Below, one piece after another: positions 57,851-64,000 of a stretch of DNA of 64,000 nucleotides. The translations under genes and the position numbers were made by a program. Origin of the DNA: an uncultured delta proteobacterium (GTDB taxonomy: Bacteria; Myxococcota; Myxococcia; Myxococcales; Anaeromyxobacteraceae); contig CAVYBH010000015.1 in NCBI GenBank assembly GCA_963766715.1, positions 224,001 through 288,000 on the forward strand, read 5' to 3'. The notes under the pieces are model-generated. The model made no database searches. It saw only the letters and a program-made list of their open reading frames with translations, and was not told the DNA's origin. How positions within the stretch are numbered: position 1 is the stretch's first letter; each line of letters opens with the position of its first letter.

Positions 57851-58818
57851 ATGCTGGCAGGTTCGCGGTCGTCTCCGGCGAAGCTCCTTCCCGTAGGGCT
57901 CGCCGCGGCGAGGAACTTCGGGAGCTTCGAGGAGCTCGCCACCTGGGCGCCGGCCTGGAACGAGTCGGAGATCCAGCTCGGGCGGGGCAGGTTCCGGGGC
58001 AGGCTGGTCGTCGCCCACACCGCGCGGATCCAGCTCGCCCTCGTGGTGCGCCGGCCGGGCGTCCTGTGCCGCGGCACGCCGCCTCCGGGAACCCGGGTGG
58101 TCGGACTCTGCCTGTCGGCGGGGCCCGCCTTCCTCCAGGGGCGGCCGTTCCGCCGCGGCGACGTCCCGGTGATCCTCGGGGGAATGCCCTACGAGTTCCG
58201 CGCGCCCGGCGCGCACCTCGTCTTCCTGCTGGCGGTGGAGGAGTTGCTGCTTGTCCCGGCATGCGGCCTCGCGGGGGCGCCCCCAGGCCTTCGACGTGGA
58301 CGGGTGGATGCGCCTCCGGGACGGCGAGGCCGGGCGCGCGCTCGGGCGCGCCTGGTACGGCGAGCTTCGGCGGGCGCTGCGGGACGCCGGGGGCGCTCGT
58401 CGATCCGGTCACCTCCTCCCGCTTCGAGGACGCCGTCCTCGACGCGCTGCTCGACGCCACCACCGAGCTCCCCTCCGCGGGCCGGCCGGCGACGCGGACC
58501 GATCCGCTGCGGCGGGCCGAGGAGTACCTCACGGCGCACCTCGCCGAGCCAGTGACGGTCAGTGAACTATCCCGGGCCGTCGGCGTCCCGGTGCGCACCC
58601 TCCACAGCGGCTTCCGCCGGTCGCTCGGCCTCCCCCCCAAGACCTACGGCAGGGTGCTGCGCCTCAACGCCGCCCGCGTCGACCTGCGCAAGGCCGGGCC
58701 GGGCGTGACGGTGAGCCAGGTGGCGATCCGCTGGGGCTTCTTCCACCTCGGCAACTTCGCGGCCGACTACCGCCGGATGTTCGGCGAGAGCCCGTCGGAG
58801 ACGCTGCGCCCCGGCTGA
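57851..58818 (+). CDS. AraC-family regulator (EutR-like), frameshifted
   Basis: QLGRGRFRG N-terminal domain; VSELSRAVGVPVRTL, LRLNAAR, WGFFHLGNFAADYRRMFGESPSETL. Confidence 0.85.
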
Positions 58819-59436
58819 TCAGGGACGCTCGACCTCGACCGCCTCGACCCAGACCTGCTCGCAGGCGCCCGAGCCGACGTCGTCCCGGGACAGGCTGGTG
58901 GGCGACTGGAAGGCGGTGCGCCCGGCGCGGTCCCGGATCACCACGTCGACGAGCTTGCCTCGGAGCGTCACCAGGTCGCCCTCGCGGATCCGCTTCATCT
59001 CCCGGGCCACCTCGTCCGACGCGGGCACCAGGTGGTGGTTCGCCACGTGGCGCTCGATGACCTGCTGCCCGGGAAAGGCCCCACCGCCGTCGTGCCACCA
59101 GCTGACGTACCGGCCGGAGAGGTGGAACTTCATGTGCGCCAGCACCTCGGGGGTGGCGACCGGGCCCCAGGCGAGGGCCAGGTCCATGGGGAGGACGAAG
59201 TCCCACTGATCGAGCAGCGTCCGGCTGGTGTCGACCGCGTAGCCGGTGATGCGGTAGCCGGCGCGCGGCGTGAGGGTGACGTGGTGCTCCTTGGCCTCGA
59301 ACTCGATGGGCGCCTCCCCGGCGAGCGCCACCTGCTCCGGCTCCGCCGCGGCGCGGGCCGGATCGACGCGGGCGCGCCAGTCCCGGCAGCCGGCGAGGAC
59401 GAGGAGCGCGGCCAGTGCCAGCCGGCGCGCGATCAT
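58819..59436 (-). CDS. hypothetical lipoprotein
   Basis: Lipobox LVLAG-C; PMDLALAWG, ANHHLVPA, SLSRDDVGSGACE. Confidence 0.65.
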   Translation of the reverse strand: MIARRLALAALLVLAGCRDWRARVDPARAAAEPEQVALAGEAPIEFEAKEHHVTLTPRAGYRITGYAVDTSRTLLDQWDFVLPMDLALAWGPVATPEVLAHMKFHLSGRYVSWWHDGGGAFPGQQVIERHVANHHLVPASDEVAREMKRIREGDLVTLRGKLVDVVIRDRAGRTAFQSPTSLSRDDVGSGACEQVWVEAVEVERP

Positions 59437-59864
59437 GGGAGGCGGAGCACCATGCAGGCGGCCGAGGCGGGACAGAGCGACCGGAACTGGTCCCCCTCCC
59501 GGATCGAGGCGGGCACGAGCTCCCTCGGCACGTCCACGAAGCCGGCCCGGAGCGCCCGCTCTCGAACGGTGGTGGTGAGCAGGAAGAGGCGCCGGACCCC
59601 GAGCGCGGCGGCCTCCTTCACGGCGCGATCGTGCAGCGCCGCTCCCAGCCCCCGGCGGCGCTGGCCCGGGGCGACCGCGAAGGATCGCAGGAGCCCGTCC
59701 TGCCCGTGGACCTCGAACCCGATGCAGCCCAGGAGCTCCGCCCCGCTGCGGGCGACGAGGAAGCGCTGCCCGGGCCGACCGACGTCGTCGTCCTGCAGGG
59801 CGCAGGCCCGCAGGAGCGCGCGGATCTCCGGCAGGTCCCCGTCCGAGGCCCATCCGATGTCCAT
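59433..59864 (-). CDS. GNAT N-acetyltransferase (ArsN2/ArgA-like)
   Basis: GLLRSFAV, RRRGLG, LFLLTTT, QFRSLCPASA. Confidence 0.75.
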   Translation of the reverse strand: MDIGWASDGDLPEIRALLRACALQDDDVGRPGQRFLVARSGAELLGCIGFEVHGQDGLLRSFAVAPGQRRRGLGAALHDRAVKEAAALGVRRLFLLTTTVRERALRAGFVDVPRELVPASIREGDQFRSLCPASAACMVLRLP

Positions 59865-59923: not shown

Positions 59924-60679
59924 GTGCGCCTCGACACCTATGGCTGGCTGGTCCTCCTGGAGATCGCGCTGGCCGTCCCCACCCTGCTCTCGCTCGTCTT
60001 CATCCCCGCCCCCTACGGCCGTCACGAGCGGAAGGGCTGGGGCCCCACCATCCCCGCGCGGGTCGGCTGGATCGTCATGGAGAGCCCGGCGGTCTGGTTC
60101 TTCGCCTGGGTCTACTTCCAGGGCCCGAACGCGCTGCGGCCGGTGCCGCTCGTGCTGCTCGCCCTCTGGCAGCTCCACTACCTGTACCGGGCCTTCGTCT
60201 TCCCCTTCCTGCTGCGGGCCGAGGGGCGGCGCATGCCGGTCACGGTGGCCGCCATGGCCTTCCTCTTCAACCTGCTCAACAACTGGATCAATGCCCGCTG
60301 GATCTCGGCGATGGGCGACTATCCCGCCGGCTGGCTCTCCTCCACCCCGTTCCTGGTGGGCTCCGCGCTCTTCCTGGGGGGCTTCGCGCTCAACGTGACC
60401 TCCGACCGGACCCTGCGGAACCTCCGGGCCCCCGGGGAGACCGGCTACCGGATCCCCCGAGGCGGCGCCTTCGAGCTCGTCACCGCCCCCAACTACCTGG
60501 GCGAGATCATCGAATGGACCGGCTGGGCCATCCTGACCTGGTCGCCCGCCGGCCTGGCCTTCGCCGTCTACACCTTCGCCAACCTGGCCCCCCGCGCCGT
60601 CTCTCACCATCGCTGGTACCGGGAGCGCTTTCCCGACTACCCTGCGGGACGCAAGGCCTTCATCCCCTTCCTCCTCTAG
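59924..60679 (+). CDS. 3-oxo-5-alpha-steroid 4-dehydrogenase (steroid 5-alpha-reductase, SRD5A/DET2-like)
   Basis: APYGRH, GWIVMESP, HYLYRA, SDRTLRNLR, YRIPRGG, PNYLGEIIEW, NLAPRA..HHRWY, RKAFIPF. Confidence 0.9.
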   Translation: MRLDTYGWLVLLEIALAVPTLLSLVFIPAPYGRHERKGWGPTIPARVGWIVMESPAVWFFAWVYFQGPNALRPVPLVLLALWQLHYLYRAFVFPFLLRAEGRRMPVTVAAMAFLFNLLNNWINARWISAMGDYPAGWLSSTPFLVGSALFLGGFALNVTSDRTLRNLRAPGETGYRIPRGGAFELVTAPNYLGEIIEWTGWAILTWSPAGLAFAVYTFANLAPRAVSHHRWYRERFPDYPAGRKAFIPFLL

Positions 60680-60690
60680 GTGGACAAAGA

Positions 60691-61644
60691 GTGAAGATCC
60701 TCCTCACCGGACCCTTCGGCAACATCGGTTCCCACGTCATCCCCGAGCTGCTCCGCGAGGGGCACCAGGTCCGCGCCTTCGACCTGGACACCCCGGCGAC
60801 CCGCAAGGCGGCCCGCGACCTCGGCAAGAAGGTCGAGCCGGTCTGGGGCGACGTCCGCGACGCCCGGGCGGTCGCGCGGGCGGTCGAGGAGATGGACGCG
60901 GTGCTGCACCTGGCCGCGGTCATCCCCCCCGGGTCGGACGAGGACCCCGAGCGCACCCGGGCCGTGAACGTGCAGGGCACCGCGAACGTGGTGCAGGCCA
61001 TCCAGGGGCGCTCGCGCAAGCCGAAGCTCCTCCTCACCTCGACCTTCGACGTGCACGGCCACACGCTCCAGAAGCCGCCGCCCCGGCGGGTCGACGACCC
61101 CGTGGTGGGGACCGATCCGTACACGGAGAGCAAGATCGCGTCGGAGGCGCTGGTGCGCGAGTCGGGGCTGGACTGGTGCATCTTCCGGTTCACCGACGTG
61201 CCGATCATCGGCCTGCGCGACCCGCACCCGATCATGTTCGAGATCGGGCTCGACAACCGCATCGAGGCCCTCCACCCCGACGACGCCGCCACCGCGGTGG
61301 CCCGGGCGCTGCGGACGCCGGCGGTGTGGGGGCGCACCCTCTTCGTGGGCGGCGGAGCCTCCTGCCAGCTCACCTACCGCGAGTACCTCACCCGCATGCT
61401 CCGGGCCATGGGCATGGACATGCTGCCCGACGAGGCCTTCAGCGACGCCGAGTACCCCACCGACTGGGTGGACAGCGAGGAGTCGCAGCGCCTGCTCCGG
61501 TACCAGCGGCACAGCTTCGACGACATCACGGCCGACATCGCGAAGTGCCTGGGGTGGAAGAAGGCCTTCGTCCCCATGGCCTCGCCGATGGTCCGCAAGA
61601 AGATGCTGGAGATGTCGCCCTACTGGAAGCAGCGGCAGCGGTAG
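60691..61644 (+). CDS. extended SDR (epimerase/dehydratase or 3beta-HSD-like)
   Basis: TGPFGNIG, WGDV, HLAAVIPP, YTESK (YxxxK). Confidence 0.8.
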   Translation: MKILLTGPFGNIGSHVIPELLREGHQVRAFDLDTPATRKAARDLGKKVEPVWGDVRDARAVARAVEEMDAVLHLAAVIPPGSDEDPERTRAVNVQGTANVVQAIQGRSRKPKLLLTSTFDVHGHTLQKPPPRRVDDPVVGTDPYTESKIASEALVRESGLDWCIFRFTDVPIIGLRDPHPIMFEIGLDNRIEALHPDDAATAVARALRTPAVWGRTLFVGGGASCQLTYREYLTRMLRAMGMDMLPDEAFSDAEYPTDWVDSEESQRLLRYQRHSFDDITADIAKCLGWKKAFVPMASPMVRKKMLEMSPYWKQRQR

Positions 61645-61680
61645 TCGAGCCGCCGCCGCGCTTCCCGGGCCGCCGGCCGC

Positions 61681-62463
61681 CTACTCGCCCGCGGCGGTCT
61701 TGTGGTGGGCGTGGCCGTGCGAGTGGGCCGACGCGATGTGCGGCTTCCCGTGGCGCCCCGGAAGCACCTTGGCCGGGCGCGCGCCCGGGCCGGCCGGGAT
61801 GGCGTCGTCGGGGGGCTTCGTCGCGAAGACGCGGTTGACGATCGGCGCCATGAGACCCAGGCTGGTGGCCGCCAGCTTGCGCAGCGGGTTGCGCGAGGCC
61901 TCGCCGTTGGGGAGCGGCTGGCTCCAGGCCTTCCCGAGCAGGTCCATGTACATCCCCACGGTCTGCCCCGCGGTGGCGAAGTCGAGCGTGGAGAGGATCT
62001 CGTCGGCCAGGCCGAACGGCATGGACGTCATGATGGGGCCGCGCATGTACTCGGTGGCCCAGACGCCGTCGGTGAAGTTCATGGCGCGAGCCTGGCCGGG
62101 TCCCACCCAGACGCGGTCGCCCGGCTTGTAGATCCGCTTCTCGAACTGCCCCTCGCCGAAGTAGTGCATCTCGCCGTCGATGACGGTGTCCCAGAAGCCG
62201 ACCGCGTGGCGCCCCGAGTGCCCCTCGGAGCCGATGGGGGTGCCCCAGATCATGAGGTATTCCATCGACGACGCGAAGTAGAGCTTCATCTGGATCATCG
62301 CGCCGCCGGCGATGCTGTACATCCAGGGCTGCGAGCGGTCAATCCGGCCCGGGTAGGCATCCTCCCAGGCGTCGGCGATGGCGTCGAACATCTCGGGCTT
62401 GGGCTTGCCGATCCCCTGCAGGGAACACTCGTGGATGACGTCGGCGTCGAAGATGTAGTCCAT
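61681..62463 (-). CDS. ERG2 / sigma-1 receptor family protein (C-8 sterol isomerase-like)
   Basis: AGGAM...YFASSMEYLMIWGTPIGSEGHSGRH...DTVIDG...YKPGD...GPGQA...WATEYMRG...PFGLADEILSTLDF follows the ERG2/Sigma1R motif order. Confidence 0.88.
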   Translation of the reverse strand: MDYIFDADVIHECSLQGIGKPKPEMFDAIADAWEDAYPGRIDRSQPWMYSIAGGAMIQMKLYFASSMEYLMIWGTPIGSEGHSGRHAVGFWDTVIDGEMHYFGEGQFEKRIYKPGDRVWVGPGQARAMNFTDGVWATEYMRGPIMTSMPFGLADEILSTLDFATAGQTVGMYMDLLGKAWSQPLPNGEASRNPLRKLAATSLGLMAPIVNRVFATKPPDDAIPAGPGARPAKVLPGRHGKPHIASAHSHGHAHHKTAAGE

Positions 62464-62541
62464 GGCCAGGCTCCGGTGGGGTGGGAGAAGGCCGGGATTC
62501 TACAACGCCTCGACGCAGTGTGTCGAAGCCCCCGGTACGGG

Positions 62542-63577
62542 TCAGGCCCTCCCCGGGCGGCGGGGCGGGATGGGCCGGTTGAGGGGGCTGTCCGGGTGGG
62601 TCTTCATCCAGTCCCAGGCGTCCCGGAGCGTCTGCACGACCGGCCGCGGGGCATGGCCGAGCTCCTCGCGCGCCTTCCGGTCCCGGATCTCGAAGTCGAC
62701 GGCCAGGGTGTGCACCGCATAGGGGGTGAGGAGCGAGCGTCGCCCGGTGACCTTCTCGAAGACGGGCGCGAAGGCGGCGATCCCCGCGGCGACCCGGAGC
62801 GGGATGAAGACCCTCGGAGGCGTCCTCCCCGCCAGGCCGGCCAGGTTCCGCATCAGCTCGCGGACGGTCATGCGCTCCCCGGAGAGGAGGTAGCTCTCCC
62901 CCTTGCGCCCCCGCTCCGCGGCGAGCACGTGGCCGATGGCGACGTCGCGGACGTCGACGAAGTCGTAGCAGCCTTCCGTCCCCGCCGGCACGGGGAAGCG
63001 GGAGAACAGGACGATGACCTCCCCGATCTCGGAGAGCCGGTAGTCGTGGGGGCCGAGCACGTAGACCGGGTTCACGATCACCGCGTCCAGCCCGTCCCGG
63101 ACCGCGTCGAGCACGATCCGGGAGGCGGCGGCCTTGGCCTTGCCGTAGTCGCCGGGCGCGAGCGCCGGGTCGTAGCCGGCCTCCTCGGTGAGCACGCCCC
63201 CCTTGCCCGGCTCGGTGAGGGCGTGGACCGAGCTCGTGTAGACGAGCCGCCCCACCCCGGCCTCGCGCGCCGCCGCGACCACGTTCCGCGTCCCGTCGAC
63301 GTTCACGGTGCGTACGCTCTCGATGTCGAGCGAGCTGATGCTCACCACCCCGGCCAGGTGGAAGACCACGTCCGCCCCGGCGAAGGCCGCGGGCAGGGTC
63401 GTCGGGCCGCAGCACGTCGCCCTGCACCCGCTCCACGTCGAGGCCGGAGAGCGCGCGGGCCTCGTCGCCCGGCTGCACCAGCGCGCGAACCCGCTTCCCG
63501 CGCCGGAGGAGCTCGCGCACCAGCGCGTTGCCGAGGTGGCCGGTGGCCCCGGTGACGGTCGCGGTCTGGAAGTCCAT
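62542..63577 (-). CDS. extended SDR (HpnA/DFR/3beta-HSD-like), frameshift near 63400
   Basis: VTGATGHLG, VFHLAG, NVDGTRNV, YTSS, YGKAK (YxxxK), VNPVYVLGP, FVDVRDVA.GH. Confidence 0.85.
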
Positions 63578-63599
63578 GCGCGGGTTCGCTCCTCTTCCT

Positions 63600-64000
63600 T
63601 CAGGGCGAGGCCAGGAGGGCCTCGAGGGTTCGCTGCCGGTGGGCGAAGGTCCGCGCCATCTCGGGCCCCACGAAGAGCCGCTCGGCGATCGCGCCGAGGG
63701 GACCGAGGCCGACATCGTACTCGAGCAGGTCGCGAACCACCGTGCCCTCGCGCCCATCCACCCGGCGAGGCTCGAACTCGTGCCGGTGGGACCAGCGGCG
63801 GAAGGGTCCCCGCTCCTGGACGTCGGCGAAGTGGTGGTCGCGCTCGTACGAGACGATGCGGGCCACCCACTGGCTCCGGAGGGGCAGCGGCGGGAGCAGC
63901 CGCACCGAGACCACGATCTCGGTGCCGGCGCCGGCCTCCTCCGAGCCCGGGGAGGCGCCGGGCGGCGGCACCCGCACGATCCGCACGATCTCGGCCCCGA
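63600..64000 (-). CDS. SRPBCC (START-like) family protein, 5' end beyond window
   Basis: WVARI, FADVQERGPFRRWSHRHEF, GTVVRDLLEY, FAHRQRTL. Confidence 0.75.
   Translation of the reverse strand, partial: GAEIVRIVRVPPPGASPGSEEAGAGTEIVVSVRLLPPLPLRSQWVARIVSYERDHHFADVQERGPFRRWSHRHEFEPRRVDGREGTVVRDLLEYDVGLGPLGAIAERLFVGPEMARTFAHRQRTLEALLASP

Follow-up and report, generated by a model that had tools for sequence, protein, structure and literature searches.

What might a homologue of steroid 5-alpha-reductases, an extended short-chain dehydrogenase/reductase (SDR), here called SDR1, and a protein of the ERG2/sigma-1 family do together in an uncultured bacterium of the Anaeromyxobacteraceae? Their genes adjoin one another near the end of the window, the 64,000-nucleotide stretch of contig CAVYBH010000015.1 analysed here (G000:C15:224001-288000), which comes from a 4.2-Mb assembly of 72% GC that is 84.6% complete. 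We find that they form a real, conserved cassette, apparently undescribed. Judging from the gene set and its conserved residues, we put at about even the chance that the cassette converts environmental steroids to 5-alpha-reduced 3-hydroxy steroids (stanols), by a route in which the ERG2 homologue would move a double bond.

The linkage of these genes was assessed in a sample of 92 genomes of the family, which are relatives and thus not independent. Of these, 23 had the ERG2 homologue, 27 the reductase and 23 SDR1. A reductase match, in one case a fragment, accompanied ERG2 in all 23 genomes that have it, and SDR1 did so in 22. Of the ERG2 loci of the 22 relatives, 18, from five genera, have intact reductase, SDR1 and ERG2 genes side by side. 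The four exceptions are two loci cut by contig ends, one with the reductase elsewhere and one split by an insertion. In metagenomes, 84 SDR1 loci were found and 80 kept, and these were counted without de-replication. The reductase gene lies directly upstream of SDR1 in 58 of the 66 loci whose flank reaches 300 bases or more, an ERG2 gene lies within 1.5 kb of SDR1 in 38 of 42 informative loci, and both flank SDR1 in 32/37.

Outside the window's genus, a classical SDR, SDR-K, usually stands between SDR1 and ERG2, and all four genes are present in 22 of 37 informative metagenome loci. The window's genus has no SDR-K at the locus, only a paralogue of 49-55% identity elsewhere in the genome. A second family of myxobacteria includes a genus in which three of seven genomes have the genes co-directional in the order reductase, SDR-K, ERG2, SDR1; the other four retain SDR-K, ERG2 and SDR1 in this order, with a reductase elsewhere. 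In a quick ERG2 tree, cassette-bearing metagenome loci grouped with Rugosimonospora, Amycolatopsis, Actinophytocola and Labedaea (Shimodaira-Hasegawa approximate likelihood-ratio test, SH-aLRT, 96), and on the strength of this tree some of them may belong among the Actinomycetota. Named actinobacteria do carry SDR1 or ERG2 homologues, among them the cultured Rugosimonospora africana, Amycolatopsis alkalitolerans and Actinoplanes species, the SDR1 proteins of Actinoplanes and Rhizocola being 63-67% identical.

The initial annotation had made its proposal depend on co-localisation in relatives, and the reductase, SDR1 and ERG2 genes are indeed linked in five genera, in a second family and on many contigs from metagenomes, not always in the same order. 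It had also treated five contiguous genes as a single block, of which only these three are conserved. The linkage defines the unit as a three- to four-gene cassette. Because linkage is conserved through at least three gene orders, with changing outer neighbours (which differ among the metagenome loci) and in several lineages, the explanation that the genes are neighbours through descent alone and share no pathway is largely refuted. We give it hardly any weight, even though a single genus supplies 14 of the 23 carriers in the family, the reductase occurs without ERG2 in 4 family genomes, and 55 of the 251 spirochaete genomes sampled have a reductase with no ERG2 match.

The reductase is of the SRD5A/DET2 type, as first annotated: it matches Steroid_dh and is closely akin to PbSRD5A, for which 5-alpha-reduction of progesterone has been reported (PMC7815742). 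The E values were 1e-88 with PbSRD5A (7C83; about 56% identity by hand count of the alignment), 4e-47 with human SRD5A2 and 3e-13 with the enoyl-CoA reductase art-1, indicating that the protein is closer to SRD5A1/2 than to the enoyl-CoA reductases. It retains 13 of the 13 residues that hydrogen-bond NADPH in PbSRD5A, as well as the catalytic E53 and Y86.

The ERG2 homologue matched human sigma-1 (5HK1) with an E value of 4e-28, in an alignment that starts at its residue 3, corresponding to chain residue 39. It has no N-terminal membrane helix, the maximum 19-residue hydropathy being 1.26. The structural model (predicted local distance difference test, pLDDT, 88) lies within a root mean square deviation of 1.4 Å of 5HK1 over 183 residues, with a cupin-barrel pocket and an extra C-terminal helix. 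H86, D92 and E138 are present in all 81 distinct homologues and Y69 in 80; Y69, D92 and E138 are the equivalents of sigma-1 Tyr103, Asp126 and Glu172. Of the 11 residues reported to contact progesterone in the Xenopus sigma-1 receptor (PMC11224282), six are identical in the ERG2 homologue, three are conservatively replaced and two are changed. According to the 2021 supplement of PMC8237579, none of the bacterial ERG2 homologues had been characterised, and their ancestral role was unclear.

This conservation bears on whether the protein is an enzyme at all. It might instead be a steroid binder or shuttle in a cassette that detoxifies delta4-3-ketosteroids, bile-acid derivatives or steroidal alkaloids. 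The acidic pair through which sigma-1 binds amines and steroids (D92, E138) is retained, the PF04622 score is 149 bits for the cassette ERG2 compared with 259 for another bacterial clade, in which the motif is different, and the sole SDR1 relative in a plasmid collection belongs to a tomatine-degrading Sphingobium. However, the near invariance of H86, D92, E138 and Y69 suits a catalyst, and the Sphingobium gene, at 34% identity, is not among the enzymes characterised in the accessible portion of the tomatine study. We therefore consider a purely binding role quite unlikely.

Genes of the ERG2 family were also seen in other settings. At L096:8957-12729 (G192), the homologue of the other clade (259 bits) has as neighbours genes for a SnoaL-fold protein, a 5-alpha-reductase and a PRK07121 FAD protein, the last of which is related to 3-ketosteroid dehydrogenases; this is a second, independent steroid-type neighbourhood. 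In one genome of the spirochaete phylum, the gene directly upstream of a sterol reductase of the ERG4/ERG24 family (E 4e-128; L218:5768-7958, G643) belongs to the ERG2 family. Small, low-GC genomes of the Myxococcota encode distant members of the ERG2 family whose N terminus has a signal-like segment (L109:4776-5681, L110:8908-9810).

SDR1 possesses the Ser-Tyr-Lys triad (S117, Y144, K148), which together with D169 was found in 91/91 homologues, and its model (pLDDT 93) shows a generic extended-SDR fold. All curated NCBIfam models scored far under cut-off, no steroid dehydrogenase structure was among the matches listed in the fold search, and the nearest Atlas clusters carry both the Epimerase and the 3Beta_HSD Pfam families. 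Asp169 aligns with an Asn of the UDP-sugar epimerases 8RDG and 6WJB; in such epimerases this Asn contacts the nucleotide diphosphate. As for SDR-K, it has two conserved arginines of the kind typical of NADPH-preferring classical SDRs. Its best solved match is 5FYD, a 7-beta-hydroxysteroid dehydrogenase, and the NCBIfam model 7betaHSDH ranked fourth and second for the two SDR-K proteins tested.

The plasmid collection (72,556 records) yielded no match to ERG2 or SDR-K and, at E 1e-15, the single Sphingobium match to SDR1. In that strain, the steroid-saponin degrader Sphingobium sp. TomTYG65, a TetR gene, the SDR1 relative (annotated as a 3-beta-HSD, or 3-beta-hydroxysteroid dehydrogenase), a flavin oxidoreductase and a GH39 gene lie in a row (L215:14306-18756). 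No tie of this relative to the characterised tomatine cluster was found, and we take it as a weak lead.

Conversion of a delta5-sterol to a 5-alpha-stanol needs four activities, namely 3-oxidation, a double-bond shift, 5-alpha reduction and 3-reduction. The four-gene set matches these activities, and the stanol-forming reading is the one we favour. An SDR would first oxidise the 3-hydroxyl. The ERG2-family protein, with Tyr69, Glu138, Asp92 and His86 as a putative acid-base set, might then bring the ring double bond into conjugation at delta4, or shift a ring-B double bond; this is the least certain step. The membrane reductase would next deliver a hydride from NADPH to C5, as its characterised homologue and conserved residues strongly suggest, and an SDR would finally reduce the 3-ketone to the alcohol. 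In most other lineages two SDRs, SDR1 and SDR-K, could share both 3-position steps. As the window's genus has no SDR-K at the locus, SDR1 may work there in both directions, or SDR2, an extended SDR encoded beyond the ERG2 homologue, may stand in.

Several observations weigh against the stanol-forming reading. In the reductase, the glutamine of the QEY motif, reported to be required in human SRD5A2 (PMC7815742), is replaced by Met52, and Met occupies this position in 73/73 distinct homologues. The best sequence and fold matches of SDR1 are mostly nucleotide-sugar enzymes of 16-25% identity, Pfam ranks Epimerase (83 bits) above 3Beta_HSD (72 bits), and no characterised close relative of SDR1 was found. 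As the best solved match of SDR-K, 5FYD is equalled by two general alcohol dehydrogenases, and the two SDR-K proteins scored 137.5 and 129.9 bits with the mycolate reductase model compared with 98 and 106 with 7betaHSDH (cut-off 300), all far below cut-off. The two changed steroid contacts of the ERG2 homologue are Trp89, replaced by Ala55, and Tyr120, replaced by His86, and sigma-1 is not known as an isomerase. As many 3-beta-HSDs are reported to isomerise delta5 to delta4 unaided (PMC10653915), the ERG2 protein may be dispensable for the second step. No sterol uptake gene is conserved near the cassette. Last, in 25 distant ERG2 loci, mostly from spirochaetes, a reductase was nearby in none and SDR-K within 3 kb in 13, so that the cassette possibly consists of two separable pairs, reductase with SDR1 and SDR-K with ERG2, which are frequently linked.

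Two of these points can be qualified or extended. In a Phocaeicola massiliensis locus of the isoallolithocholic acid (isoalloLCA) type, which also encodes a flavin oxidoreductase and a classical SDR, the reductase, 40% identical to that of the window, has the same Met for Gln, and orthologous isoalloLCA clusters are reported to be functional (bioRxiv 10.1101/2021.01.08.425963). Judged from this relative, Met at the QEY position appears compatible with steroid reduction. Regarding the distant loci, the reductase was found elsewhere in four of the five distant ERG2 genomes tested, compared with 60/251 genomes across the spirochaete phylum. Co-occurrence in spirochaetes, where 5/5 ERG2 genomes have a reductase compared with 60/251, was nevertheless not counted as support, because the ERG2 of four of the five belongs to another clade (37-38% identity).

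Some of the same data would suit a substrate other than a steroid, namely a hydrophobic enone or ketone such as a secondary metabolite of plants or a polyprenyl or long-chain acyl compound; the action of these folds on steroids in eukaryotes would then be coincidental. The SRD5A family includes polyprenol and enoyl-CoA reductases (PMC11301207), mycolate reductase is the best NCBIfam model of SDR-K, SDR2 is similar to HpnA and to cinnamoyl-CoA reductases, and the accessible portion of PMC7815742 does not say which substrate PbSRD5A has in the cell. We regard a non-steroid substrate as unlikely, given that the reductase is far nearer to the SRD5A1/2 types than to enoyl-CoA reductase, that most steroid contacts are retained in the ERG2/sigma-1 pocket and that steroid-type genes lie beside other ERG2 clades.

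If the cassette does act on steroids, these might be self-made, and it would then tailor them in the late steps of a myxobacterial sterol pathway. The remark in the initial annotation that the window has no oxidosqualene cyclase or squalene epoxidase holds and extends to the whole assembly (84.6% complete), in which PF13243 (cyclase), PF08491 (epoxidase) and PF00067 (P450) had no match; PF01222 had none either, but its positive control was also silent. The cyclase domain was found in 0/14 genomes of the genus and an oxidosqualene cyclase in 0/64 other family genomes, which makes endogenous sterols, one of the two sources that had been proposed, unlikely for this family. Things differ in genus g17 of the second family, where an oxidosqualene cyclase with the DCTAE motif is present in six of the seven cassette-bearing genomes, at one locus with squalene synthase and epoxidase, and PMC8237579 reports ERG2 homologues in sterol-making myxobacteria. 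Nevertheless, in a 401-genome sample of the phylum only 8 of 35 ERG2-bearing genomes have an oxidosqualene cyclase match, and in the second family ERG2 is present in only 6 of 90 cyclase-bearing genomes. This sparse co-occurrence indicates that the cassette is largely uncoupled from sterol synthesis, and tailoring of a self-made sterol is in our judgment very unlikely. The locus just mentioned (L203:9138-13692, G155), from a genus with the co-directional four-gene cassette, has the DCTAE oxidosqualene cyclase, squalene synthase and squalene epoxidase genes clustered.

The reading of the cassette as a converter of environmental steroids leads to a wider proposal. A strong triterpene-cyclase match was found in 1 of 23 ERG2-bearing genomes compared with 20 of 69 other genomes of the family, these relatives not being independent, which suggested that cyclase-less bacteria might make membrane stanols from scavenged plant or fungal sterols. 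The cassette could then be a genetic basis for the way in which microbes of soils and sediments poor in oxygen turn delta5-sterols into 5-alpha-stanols, and its ERG2 homologue a soluble ketosteroid isomerase that reflects an ancestral catalytic role of the sigma-1 fold. We see a small chance that this full proposal is correct. Ring degradation is not suggested, as no KstD-type match was found in the genome beyond the FAD-binding motif; the SnoaL and PRK07121 proteins of L096 had no match in it either, other degradation genes not having been searched.

If the stanol-forming reading is true, it gives a bacterial member of the ERG2/sigma-1 family a testable function for the first time, and a homologue that lacks a membrane anchor should purify easily. 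It would also supply candidate genes and carriers for the bacterial conversion of sterols to 5-alpha-stanols under anoxia, a process that geochemists use as a redox tracer (PMC6928973) and that has long served to mark oxygen in sediments.

The SDR2 and SRPBCC genes, which complete the five genes first described, are joined to the cassette only in the window's genus. SDR2 had been taken as a core member. It is present in 11 of 14 genomes of the genus, was not found in three (93-98% complete) that retain the core, and was at the cassette in 0/31 informative metagenome loci outside the genus-like clade, which argues against this status. Its best NCBIfam model is HpnA, under cut-off; an intact relative scored 260.9 bits with HpnA (cut-off 367.65) and 223.9 with SdmB (cut-off 600), and the lack of a cyclase domain in the 14 genus genomes speaks against a setting of hopanoid or sterol making. 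In a small tree of 15 hand-picked rows, SDR2 grouped with three spirochaete SDRs that adjoin a 5-alpha-reductase or SDR-K (SH-aLRT 93), and it may be an accessory member of the cassette. The window's SDR2 gene has one extra base at about 63401. Ten genomes of the same genus have a long open frame, the extra base is missing in two contigs of the independent run X3, and five more genes within 16 kb downstream are also frame-split. The frameshift is thus probably an assembly error, and a real lesion was judged unlikely.

The SRPBCC protein had likewise been included in the system. Its gene adjoins the cassette in 4 of 12 informative relatives of the genus, in 1 of 32 informative metagenome loci and in 0/27 informative loci outside the genus-like clade. 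Its Pfam matches are to Polyketide_cyc families only, and no fold search was made on it. A role as sterol carrier of the cassette was rejected, as the linkage is not conserved. The A/B-ring remodelling route put forward in the initial annotation thus stands in part: the linked reductase, SDR1 and ERG2 genes and the kinship with 5-alpha-reductases were borne out, whereas the SRPBCC protein, SDR2 as a core gene and an endogenous sterol were not.

The layout of the locus is given in the table below. ORF listing and Pfam searches reproduced the positions and orientations first described for the five open reading frames (ORFs). SDR1 starts only 11 bases past the reductase stop, suggesting that the two genes are co-transcribed. 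No ribosome-binding site is obvious at the start of the reductase gene, which only 59 bases separate from the divergent ArsN2-type gene. A promoter search between SDR2 and ERG2 gave one site, compared with 0.1 +/- 0.4 in shuffled sequences, and 16 of the 20 loci at the head of the listing, which are genus-like with an ERG2 identity of at least 81%, have a similar motif 5' of ERG2. This recurrence indicates that ERG2 probably has its own transcript, independent of SDR2. The inverted repeat TCGAC-N7-GTCGA, a possible operator, overlaps the promoter-like motif; the genome has 12 such sites.

Positions in the window of the cassette genes and of the features around them
Feature	Positions	Strand	Role	Match or remark
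SRD5A1/2/DET2-type 3-oxo-delta4-steroid 5-alpha-reductase homologue, 251 aa	59924..60679	+	core	PF02544 (Steroid_dh) E 7e-53
SDR1, extended SDR, 317 aa	60691..61644	+	core	Pfam Epimerase 82.6 bits, 3Beta_HSD 72.1 bits
ERG2/sigma-1 family protein of 260 aa, lacking an N-terminal membrane anchor	61681..62463	-	core	PF04622 E 1e-43
Sigma-70-like promoter match with overlapping short inverted repeat	62497..62526	-		directly upstream of ERG2 homologue
SDR2, HpnA/dihydroflavonol-reductase-like extended SDR	62542..63578	-	accessory	one-base frameshift at ~63401
SRPBCC/polyketide-cyclase-family protein, 168 aa	63600..64106	-	passenger	PF03364 (Polyketide_cyc) E 5e-8; start 106 bases beyond window edge
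ArsN2-type acetyltransferase	59433-59864	-		NCBIfam 130 bits, cut-off 125
Small gene, no assignment	58819-59436	-		beyond ArsN2-type gene

The ArsN2-type acetyltransferase gene and the adjoining small gene (59864-58819) were rejected as cassette members, their linkage being confined to a genus-like clade. Next to them, an AraC-family regulator gene (window 57851-58818, plus strand) is split across two frames, probably by a further assembly frameshift; several others are found just past the window's end. A conserved protein of about 590 amino acids without Pfam match is encoded upstream of ERG2 in one genus (L034:7078-9084) and elsewhere in this genome (G000:C2:8720-10480). The closest relatives of the ERG2 gene, at 83-96% identity, come from uncultured Anaeromyxobacter, Anaeromyxobacteraceae and deltaproteobacterial genomes. 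Read runs that share sequence words with the locus were from sediment, wetland and freshwater, each sharing less than half of the words, so that the habitat is indicative only. A single RNA run shared 0.07 of the words, with contigs over 16 of 30 bins, and provides no evidence on expression.

The initial annotation had not recognised this gene combination as a described system, and no description of a set of reductase, SDR1, SDR-K and ERG2 genes was found in the literature, subscription papers lying mostly outside the search. The de novo sterol pathways of myxobacteria (PMC8237579, PMC10152446) occur in the same phylum, and some producers are reported to have ERG2 homologues; they differ from the window's genome, in which searches for a cyclase, an epoxidase and a P450 were all negative. 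The term SRD5A is absent from the main text of PMC8237579. With PbSRD5A, SRD5A2 and DET2, the window's reductase shares the NADPH-bonding residues and the catalytic Glu and Tyr, and it differs by the Met for Gln. The ERG2 homologue shares the cupin barrel with helical lid and the equivalents of Tyr103, Asp126 and Glu172 with sigma-1 (5HK1, 8W4B) and with fungal ERG2, a sterol delta8-delta7 isomerase. Unlike them, it has no N-terminal helix, carries His at the position of Tyr120 and Ala at that of Trp89, and is untied to sterol synthesis.

Plants convert delta5-sterols to 5-alpha-stanols by a 3-beta-HSD, DET2 and a 3-ketoreductase, acting on an endogenous sterol. We know of no clustering of the genes of this plant route with an ERG2-family gene. 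Its chemistry, of which the DET2 step has been described (PMC11301207), is the same as that proposed for the cassette.

The nearest known system is the isoalloLCA cluster of gut Bacteroidetes, which comprises a 5-alpha-reductase, a 5-beta-reductase and a 3-beta-hydroxysteroid dehydrogenase (bioRxiv 10.1101/2021.01.08.425963). The cassette is similar to it in its working, and is not a member. In both, an SRD5A-type 5-alpha-reductase gene is clustered with an SDR gene, and the steroids of the isoalloLCA pathway are not self-made. The genes of the window's locus include no flavin oxidoreductase (5-beta-reductase), whereas the Phocaeicola locus has no ERG2/sigma-1 gene, and its SDR is a classical one without match to SDR1, SDR2 or SDR-K (E 1e-3). 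The cassette carriers are environmental and not gut bacteria. If the proposed function is right, 5-alpha-reducing steroid clusters reach beyond the gut to environmental bacteria that do not make sterols, which may matter for the environmental fate of steroid hormones.

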